Assembly: GCA_041650805.1 (NCBI GenBank)
Contig: JBAZKM010000004.1
Coordinates: forward strand, 41,636-105,635
Reading direction: 5' to 3'
Source of the DNA: Candidatus Omnitrophota bacterium
GTDB lineage: Bacteria; Omnitrophota; Gorgyraeia; 2-01-FULL-45-10
Length of the DNA: 64,000 bases
The notes beneath the pieces are model-generated. The model searched no databases. It saw nothing but the letters and a program-made list of their open reading frames with translations, and was not told where the DNA came from. Positions 18,493 to 58,600 of this stretch are shown piece by piece. Positions within the stretch are counted from its first letter, which is position 1; the number at the start of each line of letters is the position of its first letter. A program made the translations under genes and the position numbers.

Positions 18493-19128
18493 CTATGAGA
18501 TTCTCTTTTTTCTTCTTGCCATTGCCATTGCTGCGGCACCAATACCGAATAGCACCATAGTGGCCGGCTCCGGGACAACTCCGGATGGATTTCCATAAGC
18601 CCTATACGCAAAGTCAAGATTATCGTTATCCGAATATGTGCCATAATTAGTAATTAAGGCTTCATCCGGTATCGGGTTTATTGGGTTTCTATCCATCGCG
18701 CCCGTATAAGTATCTCCTGTTCTTACTTCGAAAGCAACCCAATAATTACCGGCCGGCAACGCCCAATTTACGCCGCTTACACCATACCAGCCTGTAGCTG
18801 CTCCAACTAAAAAGTTCTGGTCATATAATTGGCTATTGACGTCTGGGATGATCCCTGAATAAATTCCATCACCATAAATTGCCAGGGTCGCTGTCCCGCT
18901 CACTTGAAGGTGTCTCCATCTTTGGTCTGTAAAGTGAGCTTCGATGTTAGTGAGCGAATAAGGGTCAGACAATGTAAACCTGGCGGCGTATCCTAAGCCG
19001 TTTTCCATATAACCATAGACTGCCGCATCGGGAGGGGTCCCCGTATCAAATATTACTGCCCCATAAGCCTGGCTCGAAATTAACAACATGGTAGCAAGCA
19101 GCGTATTTAATATTATTTTTATTCTCAT
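18493..19128 (-). CDS. PEP-CTERM sorting-domain secreted protein
   Basis: Signal peptide MRIKIILNTLLATMLLISSQAYG. C-terminal VPEPATMVLFGIGAAAMAMARRKKRIS (PEP motif + TM + basic tail). RBS AAGGGGG upstream of the chosen ATG. Confidence 0.7.
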   Translation of the reverse strand: MRIKIILNTLLATMLLISSQAYGAVIFDTGTPPDAAVYGYMENGLGYAARFTLSDPYSLTNIEAHFTDQRWRHLQVSGTATLAIYGDGIYSGIIPDVNSQLYDQNFLVGAATGWYGVSGVNWALPAGNYWVAFEVRTGDTYTGAMDRNPINPIPDEALITNYGTYSDNDNLDFAYRAYGNPSGVVPEPATMVLFGIGAAAMAMARRKKRIS

Positions 19129-19396
19129 CCCTACCCCCTTTTTATGATTGTTTCGATACCGCCATAACTGCCTTATATCATACAATCTAAATACAATATC
19201 TATACAAGCAATAACCGTGCCGATATCAGATACCTTCGTAATTGTTTAAAATGAGATTGGAAAGATGATAGGTATGCCATACTATGACGAGTATGGTGTT
19301 TAAGCGGCTATACACGTGACTAAAATCAGGGCTTGTATAAAAAGCTCGATGGGTCCACCAGGCAGCAGGGCACATTTAAGGATTGTGCCAATTTAC

Positions 19397-19717
19397 TCAA
19401 ACTTTTCGAGGGGACAGGTCTGGGATGCCATCCGGAACCGGTCTGGGATTGGTACGAGAACCGTCCCCGAAAACCGTGGATAAGTATATTCGGCCATCTG
19501 ACAAATGCCCAGTGTCTAATACACTAACGATATTGGCGTGTTCAGCGGCCTTGAGAATTTGTGCTTCATAAAAGAAATTTTTCTGATTAACAATTTTATC
19601 TTTGGGAATAAACTTAACCGCACATTCTGTATTTAATCCAGTGTCTATAGCCAACCAAACCTCTCCAAAATGACCAGAACCCAATTTTTCCTTTAATTCA
19701 AATTTATCTAGCGTCAT
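19397..19717 (-). pseudogene. truncated Ser/Thr protein kinase (N-lobe only)
   Basis: LGSGHFGEVW (Gly loop), AVKFI (beta3 Lys), EAQILK (alphaC Glu), HANIV. Kinase similarity ends after about 90 aa, where the GC content jumps from about 30% to about 60%. The reading frame continues into unrelated sequence. Confidence 0.5.
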
Positions 19718-20171
19718 GAAACGTGCTCCATCCGACTAAAATTGCCTCTTGAATACATGTATCTATTTCAGCAAAGTCTTGGAAAACAGAATAGTCTAAA
19801 TCTGTTTTTAAAGATTGAGTCCTTCCTTTTAATCCCAAATCTTTTGCTATAGTGCAATTAACCTTTTTATAGACTTTAATTCCTTTAATTGCCGCTGCCA
19901 ATTGAATTATGGCCTCATTTTCTGTACGTATTACAAAGGGGCTACCTCTACTTGCCATACCCTCCGTTCCCTTTATCGCTATAGCATCTATTTTATTTTT
20001 TTCTAGAATATCTGTTATTTCTTGAGAAAACCATTTAAGTTCTTGAGGCCTTGTGTAATTCTTGGGAAAGAGTATTCGATTGTGTTGTAAGAGTTTTGGA
20101 GATTTTTTGCTACCATCCAATATAGCAAAACAATAATCTTTCGTGCTACATCTTATTCCCAAAATAATCAT
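19704..20171 (-). CDS. small RNase-H-like-fold protein (possibly DUF3010-like)
   Basis: MIILGIRCSTKDYCFAILDG N-terminus resembles RuvC/YqgF-type beta-strand-1. AT-rich codon usage. Overlaps the kinase start by 14 nt. Confidence 0.3.
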   Translation of the reverse strand: MIILGIRCSTKDYCFAILDGSKKSPKLLQHNRILFPKNYTRPQELKWFSQEITDILEKNKIDAIAIKGTEGMASRGSPFVIRTENEAIIQLAAAIKGIKVYKKVNCTIAKDLGLKGRTQSLKTDLDYSVFQDFAEIDTCIQEAILVGWSTFHDAR

Positions 20172-20283
20172 TATATTTAGCGCCTTATTGTGAAACTGCC
20201 ATTTTGATCACATATTTTTCGTACGGGCAAACATACTATAAAATATAAGGTACTAGTGTTTGTTTCGTAATAATAGATTATAA

Positions 20284-23151: not shown

Positions 23152-23154
23152 TTT

Positions 23155-24147
23155 CTAACCCTCTTTACGATATAACGTCATCGCTTCTTCTGTCTTATCA
23201 GCAGCCATTAGTAATTCGAATTTTATATTAATTGCTTCGTTATCATTTGGATCCATTATTATAGCTGCATCTATATATGGTAGACCATCCAAAGGCTTGT
23301 CCTCAAATAAACATGCCAATGCTCTATTCTTACAAGCAATAAGTGAGGGTGGAGATATAAAATCATATGCAATTTTAAACATTTTCGACGCTTCTGCTTC
23401 ATCTCCTAATACTACATAACATACGCCAAGATTATTATAAACCTTGAATTTTGCAATCATTGGTACTTTAAGGTCTTTTTTAAAATCATTTATTAATTTT
23501 TCGTATATTATTTTTGCGCTTTCATGCTTGGCGTTATCCATTAAAACTTTGGCGTTATCGATTTCGGTTTTATACTTACACCCCTCTAGCGAATCGATGT
23601 CACTAACTTTGGCAGGTAAAATATTGGATCGAGATGTGCTTATAGATTGTTCATAAGTTAATTCTGTCGATGGTTTCTTTTCGAGCGTTTTTGCTATATT
23701 AGTTCGAACCTCTATCATCATTTTGTTAGTAGCTTCCATTGTTTGAGAAACAGAAAGAGGCACATGCTCTGCTTTGGGTAATTCTTCCGTAAAAATTTCT
23801 ATAAACCTAGCGCTTATTAACCCTATGTCTCGTTGCTTAAGATTAGTGCATTCCCCACATTTTTCGTTCAAACCTTTAGATATAGCGTCTTGCGCTATTT
23901 GAGGATTTATCTTGTAGTTTTGACCGATTACGGCGATAAGCTCTTTATTATTACTAAGCGTTTCCCATAAAATGATATCAATTCGTCCACTTTTTAATTC
24001 ATTAGAAACTCTTCGTGCAGATATAATAACTGCTTTTAGTATAGGCTCTTTTCTGAACAAAGAGAGGAGCTTTTCAACGGCCTTTTCTCCAAAAACCGTT
24101 GTTATTAACTCTGCTCCCTTTATACATATCTGGAATAATATTTCCAT
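23155..24147 (-). CDS. hypothetical protein with C-terminal TPR repeats, low-GC
   Basis: 330 aa. 4-nt gap to the downstream TPR gene (likely operon). No recognised N-terminal domain. Confidence 0.45.
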   Translation of the reverse strand: MEILFQICIKGAELITTVFGEKAVEKLLSLFRKEPILKAVIISARRVSNELKSGRIDIILWETLSNNKELIAVIGQNYKINPQIAQDAISKGLNEKCGECTNLKQRDIGLISARFIEIFTEELPKAEHVPLSVSQTMEATNKMMIEVRTNIAKTLEKKPSTELTYEQSISTSRSNILPAKVSDIDSLEGCKYKTEIDNAKVLMDNAKHESAKIIYEKLINDFKKDLKVPMIAKFKVYNNLGVCYVVLGDEAEASKMFKIAYDFISPPSLIACKNRALACLFEDKPLDGLPYIDAAIIMDPNDNEAINIKFELLMAADKTEEAMTLYRKEG

Positions 24148-24170
24148 ATAGCAGATTAATCCTATAATAA

Positions 24171-24203
24171 AAAAGCGTTAGAATTAATTCTAACGCCTTA
24201 ACA
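24171..24203 (-). terminator. rho-independent terminator downstream of tRNA-Asp
   Basis: Minus strand GGCGTTAGAAT-T-AATTCTAACGC hairpin followed by TTTTTTAT. Confidence 0.45.
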
Positions 24204-24445
24204 TTCTTAATGTTATGTAATTGCTCTTGATCTCATAACCAACCCTTTGTTGTCTGATATTATAGCAGTATCGAGATATTACTACAAGGATTAGGTTAGA
24301 GCGACAGTTGGCTTCAGTAGAGTAGTTTGACTATTATACTTACGATGAGCGAGGCAAGACACTACGTTGTGACAGGATTGTGACATAAAAAAACTCGCCC
24401 TAAGTATAGAATTAGAGCGAGTCCGCCACTTACTCGACGATAAAC

Positions 24446-24522
24446 TGGCGGGGACGACGGGGATCGAACCCGCGACCTTCAGATCGACAATCTGACGTTC
24501 TAACCAGCTGAACTACGTCCCC
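24446..24522 (-). tRNA. tRNA-Asp (anticodon GTC)
   Basis: 77 nt. GGGGACGTAGTTCAGCTGGTTAGAACG...anticodon loop TTGTCGA...CGGGTTCGATCCCCGTCGTCCCCGCCA. Perfect 7-bp acceptor stem. Close to E. coli tRNA-Asp. Confidence 0.85.
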
Positions 24523-24663: not shown

Positions 24664-26340
24664 TTATTTCCGGCGGCTCTCTTTTTTGAAGGCTGCCGCG
24701 CCTTCGAAGATGAGAAAGGCCGACAGGGCGAGCAGGATAAAGATAGTGATGTCGTTTGCGCCGATACCGGGCCTGCCCGATGCCAGGCGCACCAATGTGG
24801 GTTTGACCAGCAGGATGAGCGCGGTTATCGAGGTCACAAGCATAAAGACCGTCGCAAGAAGGACATGGAAAAATTTCATCTTACTCTTGAAGAGCCACAG
24901 GCTGATGATCAGGAGCACAAACCCCGCCAGAAGCTGGTTACTGGCGCCGAAGACCGTCCAGAATACCTTCCATGCCGGGATGACGTTGCCGTCCGCGTCA
25001 ACGATCTTCTGCATCAGGAAGACGGCGGGCAAAAGAAGCGTGATGAAGCTCGCGATATACGGGCTGAAACGGTTGCGCATACCGGCCAGTTCTTCAAATA
25101 TGTAACGGCCGAGACGCGTCGCCACATCGAGCGTGTCATACACAAATGTTGCGAACGCAAGGAGCGCAAAATTGAGCGCGAAGGCGTGCGGTATGCCCAG
25201 GCGGTCCAGGAATGTCGCGATACCGCTCGCGTAGATCATGTTCGGATCTTTGAGCGCATTCGCCTGCGACGCCCCGAGAACCATAAGGGTCGAGAGGGCG
25301 ATGATAGCCACCGCGCTTTCCAGGAGCATCCCGCCATACCCGACAGGCGCAGCGTCGGTCTCCTTATGGAGCTGCCGCGAAGTGGTGCCGCTTGCCACCA
25401 GCGCATGAAACCCCGAACATGCGCCGCATGCGATCGTGATGAAGAGTATCGGGAAGAGAGGAAGGCCCGAGGGGTTCTGCCAGGATATGAACGCCGGGTA
25501 CTCGACATGCAGACCCCCGAAGAGCGATCCTATCGCTATACCGATGAAGCTGACAAAGACCGTCCCTGCCAGGAAGAACCCTCCCATATACCCGCGTGGC
25601 TGCAGGAGGAGCCATACCGGGATGACCGAAGCCATAAAGCAGTAACATAAAAGGAGTATATCCCATGTCTGACGCACTTCCATCCCCGGTATCGGCGGGA
25701 TATACAACGGGAAGAGATTCCCCGCATAAATACACCCCAGTATCAACGGCGCAAATATAGCGGTTGCGAGAGCCAGGTTCATCCTGAAACGCTTGACCGC
25801 TATGCCCATCGCCAGAGCAAGGCCGAGGTATAGCATTGAACTCGATGCCACCTTGCCGCCGTTCACCGGCTCAACGAACGTGTTCACCGTAATATCGGTA
25901 AAGACGGTTATTATGTACATGAGCGAAAACCACAGGAAGATGAGGAATACGATAAACGCCCGAGGCGGCATGTAATTCTTGACCACCTCAGCGATCGACC
26001 TTCCCTCGTGCCGTATCGAAGCTACGAGGGCGCCCATATCGTGTACGCCGCCGATAAGGATGCCGCCGATGATTATCCATAACACGGCAGGGCCCCAGCC
26101 GAACCATAGACCCGCCAGGATCGGGCCGACGATCGGGCCCGCCGCGGCGATGGCCGAAAGGTGCTGGCCCAGGAGATAGGTCTTATGGATCGGTTCGTAA
26201 TCCATGCCGTCGCGAAGCGTATGCGCGGGGGTCTTACACCTGTCGTCGAGGCAAAATGATCTCTTCAGGAAAAACCCGTAGATGAAATACCCCGCCGCTA
26301 ACGGCACGAATAAAAGTATGACGGTGAAGAAGAGGTTCAC
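24664..26340 (-). CDS. cstA: carbon starvation protein A (peptide/pyruvate transporter)
   Basis: 558 aa multi-pass protein. MDYEPIHKTYLLGQHLSAIAAAGPIVGPI N-terminal signature. Confidence 0.85.
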   Translation of the reverse strand: MNLFFTVILLFVPLAAGYFIYGFFLKRSFCLDDRCKTPAHTLRDGMDYEPIHKTYLLGQHLSAIAAAGPIVGPILAGLWFGWGPAVLWIIIGGILIGGVHDMGALVASIRHEGRSIAEVVKNYMPPRAFIVFLIFLWFSLMYIITVFTDITVNTFVEPVNGGKVASSSMLYLGLALAMGIAVKRFRMNLALATAIFAPLILGCIYAGNLFPLYIPPIPGMEVRQTWDILLLCYCFMASVIPVWLLLQPRGYMGGFFLAGTVFVSFIGIAIGSLFGGLHVEYPAFISWQNPSGLPLFPILFITIACGACSGFHALVASGTTSRQLHKETDAAPVGYGGMLLESAVAIIALSTLMVLGASQANALKDPNMIYASGIATFLDRLGIPHAFALNFALLAFATFVYDTLDVATRLGRYIFEELAGMRNRFSPYIASFITLLLPAVFLMQKIVDADGNVIPAWKVFWTVFGASNQLLAGFVLLIISLWLFKSKMKFFHVLLATVFMLVTSITALILLVKPTLVRLASGRPGIGANDITIFILLALSAFLIFEGAAAFKKESRRK

Positions 26341-26414
26341 AAATACCCTTTCTTTTAAGCATCCATTACATTACAACTCTTTTGAGGGGCCATCTTGTTG
26401 GAATCGGTGTGATA

Positions 26415-26436
26415 TGGCTGGCGGAACAGGGCTCGG
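26415..26436 (-). repeat. partial direct repeat of the tRNA-Val(TAC) 3' end (att-like remnant)
   Basis: TGGCTGGCGGAACAGGGCTCGG versus the tRNA 3' end TGGTGGGCGGAACAGGGCTCGA (20/22 matches). Confidence 0.5.
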
Positions 26437-26444
26437 TCCTCCGC

Positions 26445-26561
26445 ATAAACTAATCTCTCTTTTGTGGCCCGCCTTCGCAATCAACTGTCAAACGAATCGG
26501 TGCTTCGGCGGGCTCATCCGCCGAAGCCTTCTGTCGTCTGCCTGTTGTTGGCGAAGGCGGA
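26445..26561 (-). repeat. 117-nt conserved structured element immediately 3' of tRNA-Val (copy A)
   Basis: Near-identical to 55246-55362 apart from 2-3 substitutions in the first 20 nt and a few at the distal end. Outer stem CCGCCTTCG/CGAAGGCGG; inner hairpin GGCTTCGGCGG-ATGAGC-CCGCCGAAGC. Confidence 0.6.
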
Positions 26562-26637
26562 TGGTGGGCGGAACAGGGCTCGAACCTGTGACCTCTTGAA
26601 TGTAAGTCAAGCGTTCTACCAGCTGAACTATCCGCCC
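26562..26637 (-). tRNA. tRNA-Val (anticodon TAC)
   Basis: 76 nt. GGGCGGATAGTTCAGCTGGTAGAACGCTTGACTTACATTCAAGAGGTCACAGGTTCGAGCCCTGTTCCGCCCACCA. Confidence 0.85.
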
Positions 26638-28842: not shown

Positions 28843-29687
28843 CAGATTATCTCCTTTGCGTTAAATACCGGCCCGTCCTTACAGACCATCTTGTATTCGT
28901 ATTGGGTATTGGGTATAGGGTATCGGGTATCGGGTTTGGTAAATTGCGATCTGACTTTTACCGGACAGCCGAGGCAGACTCCCACGCCGCAGGCCATCTT
29001 CTCTTCGAGCGAGACCTGGCAATCGGCGTTATGCGCCGCGGCGATCTTAGCTACCGCTTTCAACATTGCGTTAGGACCGCAAGCGTATACGGTCCATGGT
29101 CCATGGTCGACGGTCGACAGTAAAGACCCTAAGATTTCAGTGATGAATCCTTTGCACCCTTCGCTCCCGTCTTCCGTTGAAACTAATGTTTCTATGCCAA
29201 GTTCTTTAAACTCTTTTTTGCAAATTAACTGTTTTTTTGTTTTTGCGCCTATTAAGGCGTATATTTTTTTACCGTGGGCCGTGGACTGTGGACTGTGGAC
29301 TAATTTTTCTGCCAGCGCAACGAGCGGCGCGACCCCCATGCCGCCGGCGACGAGTACAACTGTGGACCGTGGACTGTGGACTGTGGACTTAATGTCGAAC
29401 CCTTTCCCCAGCGGCCCGATCACGTCGAGAAGCTCTCCCGGTTTACGCCTAGCCAATATCTCCGTGCCCTTGCCCACGACCTCATATAATATCTCGATCC
29501 CGCCCCTTATTATCCTGTGTACGCTGAAAGGCCTGCGAAGCAGCGGATCGACAGCGTCGGAAGGGCGCACCTCTATAAATTGGCCCGGTGCCGTCGCGCG
29601 CGCAAGATACGGCGCCCCGAGCCGCATCTTGTAGTACCGCGGCCCTGCCTTCCTGTTCTCCAGTATCTTCGCGCTAAGTTGTCTCAT
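28839..29687 (-). CDS. pyrK: dihydroorotate dehydrogenase electron-transfer subunit, carrying in-frame heptamer-repeat insertions
   Basis: FAD/NAD-binding ferredoxin-reductase fold and C-terminal Cys cluster (CGVGVCLGC). Contains the repeat-encoded peptides HSPRSTV, HSPQSTA, VDHGPWTV and PDTRYPIPNTQY. Confidence 0.8.
   Translation of the reverse strand: MRQLSAKILENRKAGPRYYKMRLGAPYLARATAPGQFIEVRPSDAVDPLLRRPFSVHRIIRGGIEILYEVVGKGTEILARRKPGELLDVIGPLGKGFDIKSTVHSPRSTVVLVAGGMGVAPLVALAEKLVHSPQSTAHGKKIYALIGAKTKKQLICKKEFKELGIETLVSTEDGSEGCKGFITEILGSLLSTVDHGPWTVYACGPNAMLKAVAKIAAAHNADCQVSLEEKMACGVGVCLGCPVKVRSQFTKPDTRYPIPNTQYEYKMVCKDGPVFNAKEIIW
28893..28938. repeat. heptamer tandem array (GTATNGG) x5 to x6, in-frame inside pyrK
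   Basis: gtattcg tattggg tattggg tataggg tatcggg tatcggg. On the pyrK strand this encodes KPDTRYPIPNTQYEYK. Confidence 0.7.
29274..29389. repeat. two heptamer arrays (GTGGACT/GTGGACC) inside pyrK (29274-29301 and 29360-29389), plus a related (GGTCCAT) array at 29091-29118
   Basis: Direct reading gives gtgggcc gtggact gtggact gtggact. Each array is a multiple of 21 nt in-frame, encoding 7-aa units (V)HSP(R/Q)ST(V/A). Confidence 0.7.
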
Positions 29688-41109: not shown

Positions 41110-41133
41110 TTTTCTCCTCGTTATAGAACCGTT

Positions 41134-41205
41134 GGTCCATAGTCGATAGTCCATGGTCCATAGTAAAAACTTTGGCCGTCGACTGTGGACCGTGGACTGT
41201 TGACC
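41134..41205. repeat. heptamer-based palindromic REP-like element in the gyrB-gyrA intergenic region
   Basis: ggtccat agtcgat agtccat ggtccat ag ...loop... gtcgact gtggacc gtggact gttgacc (imperfect inverted arms). Confidence 0.5.
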
Positions 41206-41222
41206 CGTTCATTTTTCGTATA

Positions 41223-44069: not shown

Positions 44070-45167
44070 TTACGTAAGCTGCATCGGTAATACGACATAT
44101 ACATACTCGGTGCCTATCCTAACGACGCCCGGCTTCTCGGGATCGGCTACCTCAAAATGTATCTCGCCGACATCCGCGTTCTTCAGTATGTCCACGAGAT
44201 AGTCGGGGTTGAACCCTATGGAGATATCCTTCCCTTTATAATCGACGTCGAGCTCTACGCGCGCCTCCCCAAGATACGGCGCGCTCTTCAACAGGACCAT
44301 CTTGTCGCGCGCGAGGTCCAGCTTCACCGCCTTCGACTCCGGGTTGGTGAAGAGCGCCACCCTCTTCAGCGCCGATAAAAATTTATCCCTGGAGACGACT
44401 ATCTTCTCTTTCGTCTCTTTGGGCACAACCTGTTCATAATTGGGGAAATCACCTTCTATCAACCTTGATATGACGCGGGTGGACCCGACCTCGAAGAGCG
44501 TCTGGTTATCCCCGAAACTTATCTTCACTTCGCCTTCGTCCGTCAAGACCCTGAGCAACTCATTCACGGTCTTTGTGGGCACTATCATCTTTCTCTCCAG
44601 CGCCTTCGGGAACTGCATCTTCTCTTCCACCATCGCGAGCCGTCTCCCGTCGGTGGCAACGAGCCGTATATATGCCGGTTTTATCACGAAGAGTACGCCG
44701 TTCAGGACATACCTGGTCTCGTCGCTGCTTATGGCGAATACCGTCATGCCCAGCATCGCTTTTAACTTCTTCTGTTCCAGCATGATGAAGTCCTTGTTTT
44801 TAAACTCCGGGAGTTGCGGGAACTCGTCTTTGGGCAGCCCCATTATCTTAAAGGTGTTTTTGTCGCATTCAATGTGGATCATGTTGTTCTTTTTGACCGA
44901 CACGGATATATCTTCGTTTTCCGGCAGCTCTTTTATGATGTCGGCGAATTTCTTCGCGGGGATCGTTATGTTCCCTTCGATCGCGGGTTTTATCTGGATA
45001 GCCGATACTATACCTATATCGAAATCTGTTGCCGTAAATACGATATTTTCGCCGGCTGCTTCAACGAGTATGTTGGTCAATATAGGTGAGCTGCTCTTTG
45101 CGTTGATAGCGTTCTGGACGCTTTGTATGCCTTTAAGTAAGATATCTTTTTTTGTGTTGAATTTCAT
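44070..45167 (-). CDS. dnaN: DNA polymerase III beta sliding clamp
   Basis: 365 aa three-domain clamp. MKFNTKKDILLKGIQSVQNAI. Confidence 0.9.
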   Translation of the reverse strand: MKFNTKKDILLKGIQSVQNAINAKSSSPILTNILVEAAGENIVFTATDFDIGIVSAIQIKPAIEGNITIPAKKFADIIKELPENEDISVSVKKNNMIHIECDKNTFKIMGLPKDEFPQLPEFKNKDFIMLEQKKLKAMLGMTVFAISSDETRYVLNGVLFVIKPAYIRLVATDGRRLAMVEEKMQFPKALERKMIVPTKTVNELLRVLTDEGEVKISFGDNQTLFEVGSTRVISRLIEGDFPNYEQVVPKETKEKIVVSRDKFLSALKRVALFTNPESKAVKLDLARDKMVLLKSAPYLGEARVELDVDYKGKDISIGFNPDYLVDILKNADVGEIHFEVADPEKPGVVRIGTEYVYVVLPMQLT

Positions 45168-45334
45168 TATCTTTCGTCTCCTGTTAGTTCTACTTATCTT
45201 TTATAACAAATAGCAGCAGCACTTAGCAGTAGGGTCTGTTGATAAGTGAGTAAGTCATCAACCCCAATAGGAACAACGGATTGAAACCCGGGAGCATGAG
45301 CAATATTATAAATACTTATCAACATGATCAACAA

Positions 45335-46711
45335 TCAACTTTTAATATTTTTAATAAGCTTGTCGGTTATATCCCTTAAACCCTCTTTTGACTTAAGGTC
45401 GTTCTCTATCTTTTCACAGGCGTGTATAACGGTCGTGTGGTCCCTGCCCCCGAAGTTCTCACCTATCTCAGGTAAAGAGTAATCGGTCAGTTTGCGCGTG
45501 AGGTACATCGCGATCTGGCGCGGGTAAGCGACCGCCTTACTCCTGTTCTTCGCCTTCATGACAGAAAGTTTTATGTCGAAATATTCGCTCACCTTCTTCT
45601 GGATGAGCTCGATGGTGATCTTCTTCTCCCCCTCCACTATCATATCTTTCAGCACCTCCCTGGCAAGGTCCAGGGAGACATCCCTTCCTATGAGCTTGGA
45701 ATAAGCGACTACGCGTATAAGCGCGCCTTCCAGTTCCCTGATATTCGTCTTTATCTTCTCTCCCAGGAAGTAGAAAACGTCGTCGGGGAGCGCGATCGTC
45801 TCTTTTTCGGACTTCTTTTTCAGTATGGCGATCCTCGTCTCAAAATCGGGCGGCTGTATATCGGTGACGAGTCCCCACTCGAACCGCGATACGAGCCGGT
45901 CCTCGAGGTTCTGGATCTCTTTCGGCGGCCGGTCGCTGGAGACGACGATCTGCTTATGGGCGTCGAAAAGGGCGTTGAACGTGTGGAAGAACTCTTCCTG
46001 CGTCGACTCCTTGCCGGCGATGAACTGGATATCGTCTATCAGAAGGATGTCCACGTACCTGTACTTCTCCCGGAATTTCTGGGTGGTCCTGTTCTGGATG
46101 GCGCCTATGAGCTGGTTCGTGAACTCCTCGCTCGATATGTAGAGGATCTTCGTCTTGGGGAACTTCTGGACGGCGCTCTGCCCTATGGCGTGCATCAGGT
46201 GCGTTTTGCCCAATCCTACACCGCCGTATATGAAGAGCGGGTTGTACGCCTTTGCGGGGGATTCGCAGACGGCCATCGACGCGGCATGGGCGAACCGGTT
46301 GCTTGACCCGACGACGAAGCTCTCGAACGTATACTTGGGGTTGAGGCCTATCTCTTTCGGCGAGTCCGGGTTCTGGCGCGCGAACGGCCAGAACGGCTTC
46401 TCTTTCTTCGGCTCTTTTTTACGCGCGGGGTCTTCCCGCAGGGCCTCTTCGTCGCCCATCTCCTTGAGAGCGAATTCTACGCCGAGCTCTTTGCCGACGG
46501 CCTTTGCTATGCACGAACGTATCACATCCATGTACCGCTCGAGAAGCCAGCTCTTGAAGAACTTATTCGGGACTTCCAAAGTTATCGTGTCGGCGTTTAT
46601 GGATGAGCACCGTATCGGGCCGAACCAGATATCGAACGTCCGGTCGTTAGCGAGCTCCTTTTTGATCATCTCCCGGGCCTTGACCCATACGGCTCCGCCG
46701 TCAATCGCCAT
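45335..46711 (-). CDS. dnaA: chromosomal replication initiator protein
   Basis: Walker A GGVGLGKTHL, AAA+ boxes, C-terminal DnaA-box binding HTH (RDHTTVIHACEKI). Confidence 0.9.
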   Translation of the reverse strand: MAIDGGAVWVKAREMIKKELANDRTFDIWFGPIRCSSINADTITLEVPNKFFKSWLLERYMDVIRSCIAKAVGKELGVEFALKEMGDEEALREDPARKKEPKKEKPFWPFARQNPDSPKEIGLNPKYTFESFVVGSSNRFAHAASMAVCESPAKAYNPLFIYGGVGLGKTHLMHAIGQSAVQKFPKTKILYISSEEFTNQLIGAIQNRTTQKFREKYRYVDILLIDDIQFIAGKESTQEEFFHTFNALFDAHKQIVVSSDRPPKEIQNLEDRLVSRFEWGLVTDIQPPDFETRIAILKKKSEKETIALPDDVFYFLGEKIKTNIRELEGALIRVVAYSKLIGRDVSLDLAREVLKDMIVEGEKKITIELIQKKVSEYFDIKLSVMKAKNRSKAVAYPRQIAMYLTRKLTDYSLPEIGENFGGRDHTTVIHACEKIENDLKSKEGLRDITDKLIKNIKS

Positions 46712-46966
46712 AATATAGGACCTTACTTTGAGTTATCCACAACCCAATAACAACTTTTCAACACGAAAAAGGGGTTATCCACAAGTTACAAACAAGCATC
46801 GCAGCCGCGACGTTCAGTTATTATAGTAGATTATATAAAGTAGTGCAAGAGAAAAATGAGCCCGCCATTAAATGTATTGACTCAATTATTCTTTATGATA
46901 TAATTTAGCACACGCAATTTTGCTTTCGGGGGAAGACCGTCAGCTTAAAACAGGAAAGGGATGACC
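46712..46966. promoter_or_regulatory. oriC-like region with DnaA boxes
   Basis: Perfect TTATCCACA at 46733-46741 and 46775-46783, plus an AT-rich stretch at 46815-46860. Variant boxes TTATCAACA also occur in the dnaA-dnaN spacer (about 45215-45320). Confidence 0.55.
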
Positions 46967-47104
46967 ATGAAGTATACGCTAAGGGCGAAATCGAACCTCA
47001 GGAGAAAGAGAAAGCACGGGTTCAGGAAGAGGATGAAGGACCGCTGGGGCAGGGCCGTTCTGAAGAGGAGACGACAGAAAGGCCGGCACAAGCTCACCGT
47101 ATGA
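46967..47104 (+). CDS. rpmH: 50S ribosomal protein L34
   Basis: [45 protein letters not shown]. The ORF has no stop-free run long enough to appear in the ORF track. Confidence 0.85.
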
Positions 47105-47460
47105 TCTCCGACGGAGATTTTCCGAAAGAAGAACATCTTTTAAAGACAGGGGATTTCAGGAAGGTCTATAAGAACGGGTCGGCCCACAAGAGGGACCCCC
47201 TCTTTTTGTACCGCCTGCCGAACGCCGGGGAGACGATAAGGGTCGGTTTCTCGGTGAGCTCGCGCAGCATAAAACTGGCGACAAGACGGAACAGGATAAA
47301 GCGGCTTTTGCGCGAGGCATACCGGTTGAACAAGGCGAAGCTTAAAAAAGGGTTCGATATAGTCATAGTGGTGCGCAGGGATCCGTCCCCCGCATTGGCT
47401 TATAAAGATATAGAGAAGAAGTTCCTGGGCGTTGCCGGAGAGGCGGGTATATTGAAGTGA
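47101..47460 (+). CDS. rnpA: RNase P protein component
   Basis: ATGA overlap with rpmH. RNR motif region [23 protein letters not shown]. Confidence 0.85.
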
Positions 47461-47666
47461 AGAAGATAGCCATTTGCATGCTGAAGTTATATCGTAACTA
47501 TCTATCACCATTGAAGTTACAATGCTGCAGGTTTTACCCATCCTGTTCGGAATACGCCATCGGGGCCATAGAGAAACACGGCCTTTTATCCGGCGGCCTG
47601 AAGAGCATAAAGCGCATCCTGAGGTGCAACCCGTTCTCGCAAGGCGGGTACGATCCTGTCAAATAA
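47457..47666 (+). CDS. yidD: membrane protein insertion efficiency factor
   Basis: YRNYLSPL...[11 protein letters not shown] signature. Confidence 0.8.
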
Positions 47667-47682
47667 GAGAGAGTAATATATC

Positions 47683-49290
47683 ATGGAAAAACGGCTTGTC
47701 CTGGCAGTGGCATTATCGATATTGATCATCGTCTCATTCCAGTACTTCTTCGTGAAACCTCCTGTCCGCGCGCCGGATGTAAAGGGTGTGGTGAAGGAAG
47801 ATACGGCGCCCGTCCGGGCCGTTGTTAAGGAAGCGGCGGAACTGCCCCCATCCTTAGAGGCGCCCTCAAATATCGCTTTCGAAGAGGAAGAGCTTGAGGC
47901 AGATGCCGGGAAATATATCCTAACCTTCAGCAACGTCGGCGGTTCAATAAAAAAGATACGCCTGAAAGAGCATAAGAACCCGCATTCCACCGAAATGTTA
48001 GATTTGGTTGATCTAACAAATCCAAAGATGTATGTATTCTCTTTCTCCGATTCGACAGGCTCCCTCCCTTTCGACACAATAAAATATAATATCGAGAAGA
48101 GCGGTGACGATATAATCGCTTCTGCCAGGATAGGCGATATCGAAGTTGTGAAAAGATATGTATTACATAACTCTAAGCATATCATAGAGTTAGATATAGC
48201 AATAAAGAATATATCCGGCTCCTCGAGATCTTTCGGTTACAGAATAATAGGTGGTTCTGGGCTTAAAGAGCCGGATCCACAGGATGTAAGATTTATTGAA
48301 GTAAGATCCAAGGTGAACGGCATCATATTAAATTTTAAACATCCGAAGAAGGGGCGTATTACAAACCCCGGCATAGTGAGTTGGACCGCCATCAAGAATA
48401 AGTACTTCTGTATCGTGATGAAACCGTTCGGCGCGACGAAAGACCAGTTCTATAGCGAGGCGAAAGACGGTCTATTCAGCACAGGTATAGAATCGCCCTT
48501 GATCGAGATCCCATCGGGATCCGTTGTATCTCAGAAATTCATTCTTTATGCGGGGCCAAGCCAGATATCCCTGCTGAAGGAAGTGGGATTCGAATTTGCA
48601 GAGAGTGTAGATTATGGATTTTTCGGCGGGATAAGCAGGGCGCTCATAGCTGTGATGCGATTCTTCTATTTCCTTTTACATAGTTGGGGTCTATCCATAA
48701 TCCTCCTCTCCATATTTTTAAACCTTATACTATCCCCTCTCACATTTAAAAGTTTTAAATCTATGCAGAAGATGCAGGCCCTCCATCCGCAGATGGAGAA
48801 ATTGAAGGCACAGCATAAAGACAACCCGCAGAAATTGAATAAAGAGATGCTGGAGTTGTATAAAAAATATAAGATAAATCCTTTAAGCGGCTGTCTGCCG
48901 ATGCTCCTGCAGATGCCGATATTCATCGCCCTGTATAACGCGCTTATACGGTCTATAGAATTACGCGGGAGCACATTCTTATGGATAAGAGATCTCTCTC
49001 TGCCGGATGCGGTTAAGATCCCGATCACATTACCGATATTCGGTGACAGCATAAATATTCTGCCGCTCCTGATGGTCGGAGCCATGGTACTTCAACAGAA
49101 TATGTCTACAAAGCAGATGGGCAGCGCCGTTACCGATGAGCAGAAACAGCAACAGCGGATGATGTTGATAGTTATGCCTATCGTATTCGGGTTCATATTC
49201 TATAATATGCCATCCGGGCTCGTGTTATACTGGATAATAAATACGGTATTGACCGTTGTCGAGCAATACGCGATATTTAAGAATATATAA
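47683..49290 (+). CDS. yidC: membrane protein insertase YidC
   Basis: Periplasmic domain followed by the 5-TM core. Sits in the conserved rpmH-rnpA-yidD-yidC context. Confidence 0.85.
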   Translation: MEKRLVLAVALSILIIVSFQYFFVKPPVRAPDVKGVVKEDTAPVRAVVKEAAELPPSLEAPSNIAFEEEELEADAGKYILTFSNVGGSIKKIRLKEHKNPHSTEMLDLVDLTNPKMYVFSFSDSTGSLPFDTIKYNIEKSGDDIIASARIGDIEVVKRYVLHNSKHIIELDIAIKNISGSSRSFGYRIIGGSGLKEPDPQDVRFIEVRSKVNGIILNFKHPKKGRITNPGIVSWTAIKNKYFCIVMKPFGATKDQFYSEAKDGLFSTGIESPLIEIPSGSVVSQKFILYAGPSQISLLKEVGFEFAESVDYGFFGGISRALIAVMRFFYFLLHSWGLSIILLSIFLNLILSPLTFKSFKSMQKMQALHPQMEKLKAQHKDNPQKLNKEMLELYKKYKINPLSGCLPMLLQMPIFIALYNALIRSIELRGSTFLWIRDLSLPDAVKIPITLPIFGDSINILPLLMVGAMVLQQNMSTKQMGSAVTDEQKQQQRMMLIVMPIVFGFIFYNMPSGLVLYWIINTVLTVVEQYAIFKNI

Positions 49291-49305
49291 AAGATCGTCA
49301 AAAGC

Positions 49306-49334
49306 TTGACAAAAGACGGTTATTCAGGTATATT
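49306..49334 (+). promoter_or_regulatory. putative sigma70 promoter for parAB
   Basis: TTGACA (49306-49311), 17-nt spacer, TATATT (49329-49334). Confidence 0.4.
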
Positions 49335-49370
49335 TCTAGTAAAACGTTCCCCGTGGAACATTCCATAGAC

Positions 49371-50219
49371 ATGGCTAAAGTAATAGCGATATGTAATCAA
49401 AAAGGCGGTGTTGGAAAGACGACAACCGCAATAAATCTCGCCACTTGCCTTGCCTTATCAGGTATAAAGATACTGCTCATCGATATAGACCCACAGGGCA
49501 ACGCTACAAGCGGTTTAGGAATAGACAAGCATACTATAAAGACGAGCGTCTACGACCTCCTGGTGGACGAATCCGACCCAAAATCGGTCATTTTAAAGAC
49601 CGGCATAGATAACCTTTCCATCATACCGTCAAATTTGAATCTTACAGGCGCAGAGGTTGAGTTGGTTGGCATTATGGGTAGAGAGTATCGGCTCAAAAAG
49701 GCTCTTGCCGCAATAAGCCAGGATTACGATTTCATATTGATAGACTGTCCGCCATCGCTCGGTTTATTGACCATAAATGCTTTATCATCAGCATATTCCG
49801 TACTTATACCGATACAATGCGAATATTATGCACTTGAAGGGCTGAGTCAACTCTCTAATACTATAAATCTGGTAAGAGAAAACCTGAATCCTTCGCTGCT
49901 CATAGAAGGCGTTCTTCTTACGATGGCAGATTTCAGGACTAAGCTTACCAATGAAGTTATAAATGAAGTAAGGAACTTTTTTAAAGAGAAAGTATATAAC
50001 ACTGTGATACCCAGGAATATACGTTTAACAGAAGCGCCCGGTTTTGGGAAACCGATCGCCCTATATGATAAAAATTCGATCGGCGCTCAGAAGTACCAGG
50101 ATTTCACAAATGAATTTTTAGGAGTAAAGAAAGACGGCTCTGTTACTAGCCAGACAAATTTACATAACGATAGTATTGATAGTAACTTACAAAAAGTTGA
50201 GGAAGGAGAAGTTAAATGA
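49371..50219 (+). CDS. parA: chromosome partitioning ATPase ParA/Soj
   Basis: KVIAICNQKGGVGKTTTAINLA deviant Walker A. Confidence 0.85.
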   Translation: MAKVIAICNQKGGVGKTTTAINLATCLALSGIKILLIDIDPQGNATSGLGIDKHTIKTSVYDLLVDESDPKSVILKTGIDNLSIIPSNLNLTGAEVELVGIMGREYRLKKALAAISQDYDFILIDCPPSLGLLTINALSSAYSVLIPIQCEYYALEGLSQLSNTINLVRENLNPSLLIEGVLLTMADFRTKLTNEVINEVRNFFKEKVYNTVIPRNIRLTEAPGFGKPIALYDKNSIGAQKYQDFTNEFLGVKKDGSVTSQTNLHNDSIDSNLQKVEEGEVK

Positions 50220-51076
50220 CTCAAAGCCGAGCTTTAGGTAAAGGGTTGAGCGCACTCATCCCACAAAGGGAAGCGGCAGGTCCGGGTCCCCAGGAACAGG
50301 TGATGAACATCCCGATCTCACAGATAAGGACCAGTAAATATCAACCGCGCCTTGAGTTCAACCAGGAGAGGCTGAATGAACTGGTGAGCTCCATACGGGA
50401 GAAGGGAGTGGTGCAGCCGGTATTGGTCCGGCGTGTCGATAACGGCTATGAGTTGATCGCCGGAGAGCGGAGGCTGCGGGCCGTAAAGAATCTCGGGATC
50501 GCCAACATCCCCGCCATAGTCAGGGAGGTGGGGGAGATCGACATGCTAGAAATGGCGCTCATCGAGAACATACAGCGGGAAGGGCTGAACCCGATGGAGG
50601 AGGCCAACGCATTCCAGCGGTTCGCGACCGATTTTAATTTCACCCAGGAGAAGATAGCAAAGGTCCTCGGCAAGGACCGTTCTACCATTGCAAATACGCT
50701 TCGCCTTCTCGCCCTCCCGAAAAAGATACAGGAGTACATCTCCAAGAATATCCTGACGGCAGGACATGCGAAGGCGCTCCTTGCCCTCCCGACGGAGAGC
50801 GAGCAGCTGCGTGTCGCCACGCTCATAATAAAGAAAGCCCTCTCGGTACGGGAGACGGAACAACTGGTATCCAAAAGGGTCTCCGGCACCAAGAGGAGAC
50901 AGGCGCTCAAGGACCCCCACATAGGGGAGATCGAATCGCGCCTTCAGCAGGCGCTGGGGACCAGGGTGAAGATATTCCACGGGAAGAAGCGCGGGAGGAT
51001 ACAGATCGAATACTATTCTTACGAGGACCTTAACCGCCTCGTCGATATCTTTGCCCAGAAACCGGGCGCCAACTAA
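50216..51076 (+). CDS. parB: chromosome partitioning protein ParB/Spo0J
   Basis: GERR arginine patch (LIAGERRLRA), HTH, C-terminal dimerisation domain. Confidence 0.85.
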   Translation: MTQSRALGKGLSALIPQREAAGPGPQEQVMNIPISQIRTSKYQPRLEFNQERLNELVSSIREKGVVQPVLVRRVDNGYELIAGERRLRAVKNLGIANIPAIVREVGEIDMLEMALIENIQREGLNPMEEANAFQRFATDFNFTQEKIAKVLGKDRSTIANTLRLLALPKKIQEYISKNILTAGHAKALLALPTESEQLRVATLIIKKALSVRETEQLVSKRVSGTKRRQALKDPHIGEIESRLQQALGTRVKIFHGKKRGRIQIEYYSYEDLNRLVDIFAQKPGAN

Positions 51077-51642: not shown

Positions 51643-51715
51643 GGTCCACAGTCGACTGTCCATGGTCGACCGTATAAAGCATTTACTGTGGACCATCGAC
51701 TATGGACCGTGGACT
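51643..51715. repeat. heptamer-based palindromic REP-like element between ndk and yicC
   Basis: ggtccac agtcgac tgtccat ggtcgac c ...loop... ctgtggacc atcgact atggacc gtggact (inverted arms). Confidence 0.5.
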
Positions 51716-51738
51716 AACGTAGTTATTACGAGGCGTAA

Positions 51739-55068: not shown

Positions 55069-55143
55069 GGCGGCTTAGCCAAGTGGTAAGGCAAAGGTCT
55101 GCAAAACCTTTATGCTCCGGTTCAAATCCGGAAGCCGCCTCCA
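55069..55143 (+). tRNA. tRNA-Cys (anticodon GCA)
   Basis: GGCGGCTTAGCCAAGTGGTAAGGCAAAGGTCTGCAAAACCTTTATGCTCCGGTTCAAATCCGGAAGCCGCCTCCA. Confidence 0.8.
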
Positions 55144-55168: not shown

Positions 55169-55245
55169 GGACGCGTAGCTCAGTTGGTTAGAGTGCTTCC
55201 TTGACATGGAAGAGGTCACAGGTTCGACCCCTGTCGCGTCCACCA
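55169..55245 (+). tRNA. tRNA-Val (anticodon GAC)
   Basis: GGACGCGTAGCTCAGTTGGTTAGAGTGCTTCCTTGACATGGAAGAGGTCACAGGTTCGACCCCTGTCGCGTCCACCA. Confidence 0.85.
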
Positions 55246-55362
55246 TCCGCCTTCGTCGACAACAGGCAGACGACAGAAGGCTTCGGCGGATGAGCCCGCC
55301 GAAGCACCGATTCGTTTGACAGTTGATTGCGAAGGCGGGCCACAAAAGAGAGATAAGTTCAT
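55246..55362 (+). repeat. 117-nt conserved structured element immediately 3' of tRNA-Val (copy B)
   Basis: Near-identical reverse complement of 26445-26561. Same position relative to a tRNA-Val 3' end, and the same nested stems. Confidence 0.6.
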
Positions 55363-55620
55363 AGGGAGAGGGTATATCCCCCACCACTTAAATGCCCTCG
55401 CCTTATAATATAGTTATATCTCAAAATTCCCTCTTAATAATAGTTAATACATAAAAAAGCAAGATATTACCTCTTGTCTATATCATAATAAGCAGGTAAA
55501 CTTATGATATAAGACGCTAGAGTGCACATTACTTGCCTGTATGTTAAGCAGATCCGGGCAGGTAAATTTTTTTCATCCGTTGTTTTATGTATTTACAAAG
55601 AGCGAAGGAAACTATTGGAT

Positions 55621-58600
55621 ATGTCAGACGCTAGATCTGGTAGTACTCCTAATGTGATCTTGAATAGACGCCCATTCAGGGTGACGATCGCCATTGTCAC
55701 CCTGTGGGCGTTTTTACTTAATATTGTAGCATACGATCTGGCCTGGGCTGCCGGAACGCCTACAGAGCTTACTAGCGTCGGCCCTGATAGAGCCGGCGGC
55801 CCGGGCGTTGTGAAGGAACTGGACGCTTCGACATTTTCATTACCCCAGTATCTCGGTTCTATCCGCGACTCCTGGTCCCCTAAACCCTATACCCTATACC
55901 CTATACCCAATACTATAATCCACATCCAAGACGCCCACTGCAACTATTATGCCCAGCACAAGATAAAAGAGATAATAGAGTATCTGAATAGAGAATACGG
56001 CGTAGATACCGTAAATCTCGAGGGTGGGGCGATGGGTTACGACCTGTCCCCGTTTACGGATATACGCGACAAAGATATCCGCGAAAAGGCGACCGACCAT
56101 TTCGTGAAAGAGGGTTTGGTGAACGGCGCAGAGTACTTCGCCATCAACAACCCGGAGAAGATAGCGCTTTGGGGGGTAGAGGATGCCCGGCTCTATGTCG
56201 ATAACCTCAATGTCTACAGGAGTTCAGCCGTCCGCAAGGCCGAGATCGAGAAGCATATTAAATCGCTCAACCACATCATCAACAACTTAAAACCGAAGAT
56301 ATATTCGAAAGAGCTTCTCGAGTTCGACCTGGCATATTCCTCATACAAGGCGCACAATTCGGAATTCAAAGATTACCTGTCATACCTCATAACGAAAGCA
56401 AAAGAGAGGGCCATCAACGTAAAACAATTTACAAATATCTACATCCTAAGCCGGACGCTCGGCGAGGAGGGGAAGGTCGATTTTAAAAGAGCGAATATCG
56501 AACGCGACGTTATGATAGATGCGCTCGGGAAACGGCTTTCGAAAAGCGCTCTCGAGGAACTTGTGGTGAAGACGGTTGAATTCAAGGCGGAGAGGATATC
56601 GCAAAAGGAATTTTACGCGTACCTCACAGGTAAGGCGAAAGTCGCCGGCTTGGACATGGACGGCTTCCCCGAACTCCGCAGGTATATTATCTATATCTCT
56701 ATGTACGAAGCGGTCGATAAGCCGAGCGTCATGGAAGAGATAGATGCCCTGGAAGCGAAGCTTCTGGAAGGCCTATATCGGAACGAGGAAGAGAGGACCT
56801 TAAGCCGTCTTTCGAAGAACCTGGCGTTATCGAAGAACATATTCGACATCTCGCTTACCAGGGACGATTACCGTTACTACAAGAAGAACGAGGCGTCGTT
56901 CGATATGCGTAACTACGCCGTGTTCATCGAGCGGGAAGCGCCTGCGCGCGGTATCACGGCAAAGCTCGACAACGATATAGCCCACCTCGACAACTATAGG
57001 CGGGAGATGGCGAAGTTCTACGAGTATTCATTCAAGCGCGATGAGGCGTTCATACGGAATATTAAGTTAGGGGGTATAGGGTATAGGGTATCGGGTATAG
57101 TAACCCGAAAACCAGGGGCCGCGATCCTCGTGACCGGTGGGTTCCATTCCGAGAACCTCGCAGAACTATTCAAGAAGAACGATATCGCCTACGTATCGAT
57201 CATGCCGAACTTCAGATCCGGCGACGAGTATGAGTGCCCGTACTTCAAGATCCTTTCAGGCGAGAAGAATATCAGGATAAAAGAGTCATTACCGGCGGTC
57301 CTCACCGGCATGCTCCCGGTACCGGATCAGCTGAATCCGGCGGTGATGAGAGAGCTCGAAAAAACCCAAAAACCGTTGGGCGCGGGAAGGATGAGGATGC
57401 AGGGGGAGCATGCATTTACACAGTTTTTGACGCGCATAGAACCGCTCCTTCTTATGTCTGAGGCCCTGTTGCCCATAATAATAGACAGGGCCATACAAAG
57501 ATATGAGAGGACGAAAGAGCCGCAGGTTATCAATATAGGGATCGTGGGGGCAGGATATGGCCAGGAACCCGTATCCGTGGCGATCGCCCTTGATAGAAAG
57601 ATAAGAAGTATGCTTGAGGACCGGCGTCTTCCCGGGGATTCTGTGAAGCTTGCAGTCCATATCATGAGCAGGCCGTCCCCCATGCTCGATAAGCTTAGAG
57701 ATAATGGAATAAGGTATCCGGCAGATTCGATCGCGCGACAGATCGCTCTCGGCAATATCTCAGAGACCGAACGGGACAGGTATTTTGAAGATACGGGAAC
57801 AGGGTCAAGGCGCACCCAGGCCCTGAACGATATCATGAAGTTTTATGAAGTCGATCTTTTGGACGATCCGCAGGCAGAGGTGCCGCCTCTCGATGCGCTA
57901 TTGGTCCACAATATCCTGCAGTATCTGATGCCGGGTGATATGCAAAGTGCGCAAGCGGCATTCGGATATCTGGGTTCAATGGTAAAGCCGGGCGGGATCA
58001 TTTCAGTCACGTCCCCGGAAGGAACCGCCGACAGATACGTTAAGGCAGCGTATGATGAGATGTTTAGCGGCCGCGGCGGATATGAGCAAGCGAAATTTGA
58101 AGGGTTACCCGTAGAGACAGTATTTTTTGTGAAGAAGACACCGCCCGCGCCGCAGGCCGGGTTCGGTCGCCTTGAGGTGATCTCAGGCGTAGCGGTGCTG
58201 ACGGCAGCGGCAGCGACTTTCCACGCCGCAGGCATCGCCGCGGCGCTCGTTGTCGGGATCGCCGGCGCGCTCGCAGCAGCGCTCTTATTCAGGTATCTCA
58301 ACCGGGCAACGTCGGAAGAAAAGACGGCCACACCGACACCTCATGAGGCCATGATAAGAGAATTATGGGGAAGCGTTCCGCGACCGATCGGTGATGCGGA
58401 ATTGCGAAAAGCCATCATAGAAAGATCTTTTTCTGGTGAAGCAGCCATGCGATGGGGTGCTGACACGTTGTCGGACCTTATCGATTTTAATAAATCGAGG
58501 GCAGGGACGCTATATATTACGGCTATCATAGAAGCCAGTTTACCCAAGTTAGGGATAATGATACCGGACAATTTTATGTACGGCCCTGCAATGACACCGG

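Follow-up and report, generated by a model that had tools for sequence, protein, structure and literature searches.

Several described systems resemble, each in part, the element reported here. MITEs such as Correia/NEMIS, ERIC, and RUP are non-coding, near-perfect palindromes of about 100 nt with long terminal inverted repeats; on co-transcription they form hairpins that RNase III can cleave, and they differ in presence or absence at orthologous sites. tRNA genes serve as attachment sites of integrative elements, including the non-autonomous remnants termed CIMEs. Hairpin substrates of RNase P and RNAs from tRNA 3' trailers are exemplified by the 4.5S RNA precursor, the C4 RNA of phages P1 and P7, and 3'ETS-leuZ. 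The REP unit is a short imperfect palindrome of 20–40 bp that occurs in tens to hundreds of copies per genome, and the gene for RAYT, a Y1 transposase, is flanked by such repeats. REP elements, the REP dimers or BIMEs, and REPINs are RAYT-associated repeats (PMC3733652, PMC3116915, PMC2817692), and in REPs one end bears a tag, GTAG or CGTC, that is conserved and unpaired (PMC3733652).

The window, which is the whole 64,000-nt stretch analyzed here, comes from a contig of 203.7 kb in a Candidatus Omnitrophota MAG and holds two copies of a palindromic element. Copy B stands in a small tRNA cluster that opens with tRNA-Cys(GCA) at 55069..55143 on the plus strand (ARAGORN; Rfam tRNA, 68.7 bits). 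The tRNA-Val(GAC) gene (55169..55245, plus strand; ARAGORN and Rfam) has its CCA encoded, and copy B begins at the following base. By fold, covariance model R1, and alignment, it is a 94-nt palindromic doublet, that is, a long imperfect hairpin, at 55246..55339 (plus strand). In alignment A2 its 5' unit (TCCGCCTTCG...GCTTCGGCGGA) spans 55246..55290 and is separated by the loop TGAG (55291-55294) from the 3' unit (CCCGCCGAAGC...GCGAAGGCGGG, 55295..55339), which by identity and pairing is an inverted, diverged copy of the first; all three parts are on the plus strand. A CCA (55340-55342) and a tail, GCCACAAaAGA..ATAAG, follow at 55340..55368 (plus strand); this tail is common to copy A and is partly present in an orthologous copy at locus L236 of a relative. 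Copy A is on the minus strand, with its doublet at 26468..26561 (R1, 105.9 bits) directly 3' of its host tRNA-Val(TAC) (26562..26637, minus strand; ARAGORN and Rfam). The CCA and tail, placed by alignment, are at 26439..26467 (minus strand), and a degenerate direct repeat of the tRNA-Val(TAC) 3' end (19/22) at 26414..26440 (minus strand) is found at this copy only.

The sequence-only reading had described 55246-55362 as the reverse-complement twin of 26445-26561, starting at the base right after CCA behind two valine isoacceptors, TAC and GAC, and the tRNA ends given by ARAGORN and Rfam at both copies bear this out. Over that interval the copies are identical at 113 of 117 positions, compared with 92/94 for the hairpin and 117/123 for the full block, the likeness ending near 55368/26439. 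The two differences within the hairpin are at element positions 11 and 13, near the element start, where they had been noted. With an overall identity of 95–98%, the prospect that alignment would find the copies dissimilar came to nothing. The repeat search returned one 180-nt inverted repeat at 90% (26439-26618 versus 55189-55368), which extends into the similar 3' halves of both tRNA-Val genes; the shared block takes in the tail and adjoins a tRNA segment, AAGAGGTCACAGGTTCGA, identical in both. A core 27-mer has exactly two occurrences in the window and was absent from all 100 shuffles, and both copies matched R1, the covariance model of the family, with E ~1e-22 (103 bits and E 1.4e-22 for copy B). 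An assembly artefact can be dismissed, since a Logan contig obtained independently from a different run (L003) breaks off within the T-arm segment that both tRNAs share, as a true repeat would make it do. The tRNA 3'-end repeat of copy A (19/22) lies ~125–126 nt downstream, against a shuffle maximum of 15/22. Copy B had been said to have no such duplicate, and none that was significant was found in the 8.7 kb to the window end, where the best match, 13/22, equalled that of shuffles. A degenerate tRNA-end repeat considered after copy B (CCCCCACCA, 55378-55386) was not above chance and was discarded.

Both copies precede genes on their own strand, as had also been observed: downstream of copy A is cstA (24664-26340, minus strand), and downstream of copy B is an ORF of 6413 aa that runs from 55622 through 64000 and beyond the window end (plus strand). 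The region of the replication origin is at 44070-51076 (dnaN, dnaA (-), rnpA, yidC, parA, parB (+)), and the cumulative GC-skew minimum, at ~46–47 kb, falls amid dnaA, dnaN, rnpA, yidC, and parAB. The copies occupy opposite replication arms, at distances of ~20 kb (left) and ~8.5 kb (right) from the origin, and are both directed away from it; they are therefore reverse-complement twins. A consensus scan of 55246-55621 gave no promoter and no terminator, and specifically no sigma-70 promoter inside or just 3' of the element. By eye, a weak candidate for a terminator-like hairpin could be seen at 55529..55584 (plus strand), ~40 nt before the giant ORF, with an 11-bp stem, a 15-nt loop and then a U7 run (fold –16.4 kcal/mol, z –1.6), and it was missed by the scan because of its loop length. 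The spacer 3' of copy B is AT-rich.

Other features of the window were recorded alongside. A low-GC island at 19000-24400 (30–34% versus ~55%) adjoins tRNA-Asp (24446-24522, minus strand) and codes for a 955-aa protein with TPR, GreA/B-C, and PIN parts (Pfam PIN-TPR-GreABC), a TPR protein of 330 aa, and a fragment of a protein kinase, with no integrase seen. Tandem 7-nt repeats, either GGGTATA/GGGTATC or GGACTGT/GGACCGT in type and often paired in inverted orientation where genes meet, form arrays at 28897-28942, 29089-29114, 29271-29389, 41132-41212, 51648-51716, 55878-55913, and 57072-57100. One inverted pair (CCCTATA x5 and GGGTATA x4, 1.16 kb apart) is within the 5' part of the giant ORF, and similar runs occur in the relative L233 at 880-1230. 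An inverted repeat of 484 nt with 78% identity (1463-1946 and 4766-5249) presumably consists of two diverged paralogous gene segments.

On the strand of the tRNA, copy B is predicted by RNA folding to form a single long imperfect hairpin at 55247-55338 (–54.5 kcal/mol, z –7.05), and the opposite strand folds at –50.2 kcal/mol. The element as a whole is a 94-nt palindromic doublet made of two inverted, diverged units of ~45 nt around a 4-nt loop, followed directly by CCA and then by a tail of ~25 nt. In copy B the 5' unit shares 76% identity with the reverse-complemented 3' unit, and across the family the doublet arms are 71–78% identical as inverted copies. The basic unit of ~45 nt (TCCGCCTTCGCA ... 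TGCTTCGGCGGA) is palindromic at its ends only: a terminal stem of 6 bp (TCCGCC/GGCGGA) leads through a 3x3 mismatch to 3 bp more and a loop of ~21 nt. In all members the outer 11–17 nt are complementary as terminal inverted repeats. Single units are 78–91% identical to the 5' unit of other family members.

All 10 members that were folded gave hairpins of 25–38 bp, in which the middle of the stem varies in sequence yet stays complementary. In alignment A2, 91.7% of the cells are paired, versus 36–49% when the structure is slid, double changes occur at 7 of the 29 pairs, and no shuffle reached the observed covariation score. A strand-specific excess of G-U pairs, looked for as a sign of selection at the RNA level, was not seen: with the closing pair left out, a manual tally of the stems gave 10 G-U against 8 A-C. 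The tRNA-sense strand folds better in nine of 10 members, by only 0.2–6.6 kcal/mol, so that the hairpin energy is similar on both strands; both hairpin substitutions between copies A and B turn Watson–Crick pairs into G-U on the sense strand. The pairing constraint is thus real, yet it singles out no RNA strand as the selected molecule. Neither alignment A2 nor the flanks of the single units contain a conserved GTAG or CGTC tag of the REP kind. The flanks of family members are A...T or CCA...CCA, with CCA on both sides in six copies; other flanks are CCA/CTA (L137), CCA/CCG (L053), and TA/TA (L078 and L225), the last of which may be an extension of the palindrome. GCCA or ACCA stands directly 3' of the 3' arm in 6 of the 11 doublets, all tRNA-linked and both window copies included, and the same six have a 10–11-bp stem with a 3' NCCA and a U at –1.

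Relatives were found with patterns internal to the element in one genome scan and one metagenome scan, and by nhmmer and the covariance model on the fetched loci. The first genome scan, made with the palindromic core pattern, gave 109 matches, mostly unrelated GC-rich hairpins, with six true members; the metagenome scan, whose listed matches were mostly due to chance, gave at least two doublets and at least seven single units. Altogether the family comprises 11 full doublets and at least eight single units among the matches listed, from MAGs labelled in their records as Omnitrophota or Planctomycetia. In seven of the 11 doublets the first base is the one next to the CCA of an intact tRNA gene, and six tRNA identities are represented: Val-TAC (copy A and L236), Val-GAC (copy B), Val-CAC (L067), Arg-ACG (L037), Pro-GGG (L081), and Thr-CGT (L137). 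In every tRNA-linked copy the hairpin foot is at +1/+2 after the CCA. The sequence-only reading had proposed an element that targets tRNA-Val; the link to the tRNA 3' end stands, and the restriction to valine does not, because scans with internal sequence located members directly behind Arg(ACG), Pro(GGG), and Thr(CGT) tRNAs of other genomes, as well as behind Val(CAC), and other members, full or single, have no tRNA in their vicinity. The association is with tRNA 3' ends in general and is not absolute.

With regard to the members away from tRNAs, the L053 doublet is preceded by a CCA-ending sequence that is not a tRNA, and a search for a hidden upstream tRNA gave none. The L078 doublet sits behind a terminator, and those of L225 and L041 have no nearby tRNA. 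Single units, found in both orientations, occupy the space from accB to accC in two genomes, sites behind terminators, and a site in front of a promoter; one is 3' of the PyrR leader of L257, and some are composites with another palindrome. In that leader region (L257, 3098-3293), a terminator stands behind the PyrR-binding structure (Rfam RF00515, 54.7 bits), and past that terminator, before the first pyr gene, is a composite of another palindrome and one family unit; this composite recurs in L154, likewise behind a terminator. Copy number is low in the sequence covered, with two copies in the 64-kb window and about three in ~290 kb of the relatives' loci.

Nothing in the databases corresponded to the element, which had been the other possible objection, namely that it belonged to a common, annotated family. 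At the gathering score, Rfam reported only tRNAs and one PyrR leader in the window and eight related loci, and at E up to 10 only noise of the microRNA type was added to the tRNAs. BLAST against plasmids and phages gave no element match, and two pattern scans of viral contigs had no family member among their matches. In the sequence reached (~64 kb of this genome, with 16 window proteins scanned, and loci of up to 20 kb), no copy had a transposase, RAYT, or integrase gene in its neighborhood, and none of the 16 window proteins scanned was a Y1 transposase. The literature search on tRNA-adjacent palindromic repeats and on Omnitrophota repeats yielded nothing that matched.

The orthologous tRNA sites of the relatives show turnover. 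In L260 the tRNA-Val(GAC) site downstream of coaBC is empty, with tRNA-Cys, tRNA-Val(GAC), 11 nt, and another tRNA in succession, and behind that tRNA-Val in L262 stands an unrelated ~142-nt insert, which ends in a repeat of the tRNA 3' end (18/22, at +143). The tRNA-Val(TAC) site downstream of pyrE is occupied by this palindromic doublet family in the window and in L236, by the ~142-nt type with a tRNA-end repeat in L254 and L257 (21/22 at +142 in L257), and by a third hairpin type in L256 and L258/L259; L233–L235 have no tRNA after pyrE. The L236 copy retains its 5' end, the apex (CTTCGGCGGATGAGCCCGCC), a 3' end that includes GCCAC, and some of the tail, with TCCGCCTTCG and GGAAGGCGGGCCACAA among the conserved stretches, and the rest is replaced; its mid-stem has a different sequence with complementarity kept.

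Because several families adjoin CCA ends, the tRNA 3' flanks of this group can be said to hold different small hairpin elements repeatedly. The ~142-nt type, 3' of tRNA-Val(TAC) or tRNA-Val(GAC) (L257 10654-10816, L262 7562-7725, L254 10644-10800), is rich in hairpins and has the tRNA 3' end directly repeated at its close, in degenerate form in L254; it gives the impression of a miniature integrated module whose size is constant. The third type stands directly 3' of the CCA of tRNA-Val, tRNA-Cys, and tRNA-Leu (L256 10655-10720; L258 10684-10760; L262 7323-7385 and 7872-7945, the L262 copies following tRNA-Cys and tRNA-Leu) and consists of an A/T-rich hairpin (AATTTTGCC..GGCAAAATT) and then TGATCCTGAG...CGAAGGACC. 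A CGAAGG/CCTTCG motif is common to all three types. In an unrelated metagenome contig (L188, 9469-9834), a minus-strand cluster of Pro, Leu, and Arg tRNAs has spacers that each hold a ~130-nt palindromic module starting from the CCA end, with one family unit inside; the module follows two of the tRNAs. At L204 (2115-2180, minus strand) a tRNA-like 3' end (TGGAGCGGGAGATGGGGATCGAACCC...), missed by ARAGORN, is followed by GTCCGCCTTCGC, and a related element may have interrupted a tRNA gene here. Genes for GIY-YIG proteins of 80–84 aa were seen immediately 3' of tRNA-linked elements in L037 (1264-1506) and L236 (11520-11762), and also at syntenic positions in L256 (10760-11005) and L259 (10796-11050). 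As the L037 and L236 proteins appear dissimilar by eye, the link was taken as coincidence or synteny.

The reading that we prefer, and to which we give roughly an even chance, is that of a non-autonomous palindromic repeat, similar to REPINs and MITEs, that favors tRNA 3' ends and that underwent a recent copying from one Val locus to the other. The distribution of its members suggests that the family spreads as DNA, with the first base past the tRNA CCA as its preferred site. A block of ~123 nt would have been copied between the tRNA-Val(TAC) and tRNA-Val(GAC) loci, in either direction; that this was recent is suggested by the 95–98% identity of copies A and B as against the strongly diverged ortholog. 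The route could be transposition by a factor acting in trans or recombination primed by the identical T-arm segment. Once in place, the element would be transcribed as the 3' trailer of the tRNA, and the trailer would probably form a long duplex to be cut away by RNase III, RNase P, or both, freeing the CCA end; it may also buffer the tRNA from the downstream transcription unit. A repeat is the best fit to the coexistence of singles and doublets, the two orientations of the singles, and the many contexts, and likewise to the turnover of sites and to near-identity within a genome as opposed to divergence between genomes. Against it are the lack of a transposase, RAYT, or integrase gene near the copies in the sequence reached, the low copy number there, and the absence of GTAG and CGTC tags. 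The target-site duplication is ambiguous, since CCA/CCA fits six copies and the other copies do not conform. The L236 hairpin, with its compensatory changes and invariant apex and tail, could equally reflect long-term selection in place, and the unrelated hairpin families that abut CCA in relatives could reflect functional convergence rather than an insertion preference.

A different proposal is that the element is a functional structured RNA from the tRNA 3' trailer, in which a hairpin ending in (G/A)CCA and placed after a U mimics an acceptor end. An RNase P cut at the 5' side of this hairpin would make the CCA (or CCA+U) end of the upstream tRNA, and the products would be a stable hairpin RNA of ~97 nt or a downstream mRNA capped by a 5' hairpin. 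The position of the hairpin foot, +1/+2 past CCA in all tRNA-linked copies, would be expected of such an RNA, as would the GCCA/ACCA directly behind the 3' arm in 6/11 doublets, all tRNA-linked. The L236 ortholog, which keeps TCCGCCTTCG, CTTCGGCGGATGAGCCCGCC, and GGAAGGCGGGCCACAA while its mid-stem is swapped yet complementary, the seven double-change pairs, and the 91.7% of cells paired (36–49% slid) point the same way, and so do the better fold of the sense strand in 9/10 members, the G-U pairs made there by both A/B substitutions, and the absence of an intrinsic terminator 3' of the element in the consensus scan. However, the CCA tail is absent from the tRNA-linked L137 as well as from L078, L225, and L041, and the overall balance of G-U and A-C has no strand bias. 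Orthologous tRNA sites are empty or carry unrelated inserts, and the Rfam tRNA model sees no tRNA-like hairpin, even with E up to 10. Singles in both orientations stand outside tRNA-led transcripts, and those at accB/accC, behind terminators, and before promoters argue for dispersed DNA repeats over one RNA function; we consider a trailer RNA unlikely. A simpler transcript-level role, as a plain terminator or a stabilizing hairpin of the tRNA-Cys/tRNA-Val operon, is highly improbable. A long GC-rich hairpin does stand right behind the last tRNA, and a T-run follows two members (L081, GCCACGAATTTTTT; L053, GCCGGTTTTTT), but the window copies run into GCCACAAAAGAGAG without a U-tract and the scan calls no terminator. 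Ordinary terminators with a hairpin and T-run exist in these genomes, for example after tRNA-Asp, and the units of L078, L154, L193, and L257 are behind a bona fide terminator, others being between genes of one operon.

The bracketing of copy A by the tRNA 3' end and a 19/22 repeat 125 nt downstream raises yet another explanation: an integrative element, recombining into tRNA 3' ends, of which the palindromic element would be a remnant or cis-mobilizable mini-derivative. The palindromic element would then be the attL-proximal arm left beside a rebuilt tRNA end, with cargo beyond it, possibly the giant gene at copy B. Unrelated inserts in relatives are laid out alike (21/22 at +142 in L257; 18/22 at +143 in L262), tRNA-Val and tRNA-Asp of this neighborhood appear as integration hot spots, the low-GC island adjoins the tRNA-Asp of the window, a serine recombinase and prophage genes adjoin tRNA-Asp in L236 and L257, and an AT-rich spacer is behind copy B. 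Set against this, a tRNA-end repeat is missing from the sequence at hand for copy B and five more tRNA-linked members, six different tRNAs would need six matching att variants for a non-coding element of 100 nt, and singles and doublets also occur far from tRNAs. No integrase is adjacent to any copy in the loci reached, and there was no match to a phage, plasmid, or viral contig; an integrative origin seems quite unlikely. A broader and speculative idea, doubtful at present, takes the several CCA-abutting hairpin families together: they would form a new class of miniature elements, guided to the tRNA 3' end by recognition or mimicry of the acceptor end with its hairpin and NCCA, a form of targeted insertion not described in bacteria, or else trailer RNAs released by RNase P that aid CCA maturation.

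For the palindromic repeat favored here, the novel and unusual feature is its start at exactly the base behind CCA, on tRNAs of six identities. If the preference for tRNA ends is mechanistic, a small non-coding repeat targets the CCA end with base precision across many tRNAs, which was not found in the literature compared, the REP survey included (PMC3733652), and a trans-acting enzyme in Omnitrophota would be indicated. If the hairpin is a processed RNA, it would represent a new tRNA-linked RNA class and would show maturation of a tRNA 3' end with a stable helix starting at +1. In practical terms, these repeats interrupt short-read assemblies at tRNA genes, as in L003, and the 180-nt inverted repeat across the origin is a possible substrate for inversion between the replication arms.

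Compared with the known systems, the element resembles REPs and REPINs as a short palindromic intergenic unit that occurs as singletons and as inverted dimers folding to one stem-loop, with arms diverged as in a "heterodimer," and that is found at gene ends, within operons, and in mosaics with other palindromes (the L154 and L257 composites). It differs from them in having no GTAG/CGTC tag, a longer unit loop (~21 nt), a low copy density in the sequence covered, no RAYT seen, and an exact start past the tRNA CCA, which is not described for REPs in the survey (PMC3733652). With MITEs it shares a size of ~100 nt, terminal inverted repeats of 11–17 nt, and differences at orthologous sites; it is set apart in that its target-site duplication is not consistent, that no parent IS whose ends match was seen among the fetched loci, and that it has half-size single units and tRNA-end specificity, both unusual for MITEs. 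The position at the tRNA 3' end and the tRNA-end direct repeat that bounds copy A recall integrative elements and CIMEs, but the element is only ~125 nt long, copy B and most relatives have no repeat, the host tRNAs are many, and no integrase was seen near the copies in the loci reached. As in RNase P substrates and trailer RNAs, a long hairpin is positioned as a trailer, and one subfamily has what reads as a 3' NCCA with U at –1; there is, however, no sequence or Rfam similarity, and CCA is not universal in the family. We therefore file the element neither as a REPIN nor under a named MITE, and regard it as belonging to that general kind, its association with tRNA ends being the new feature.
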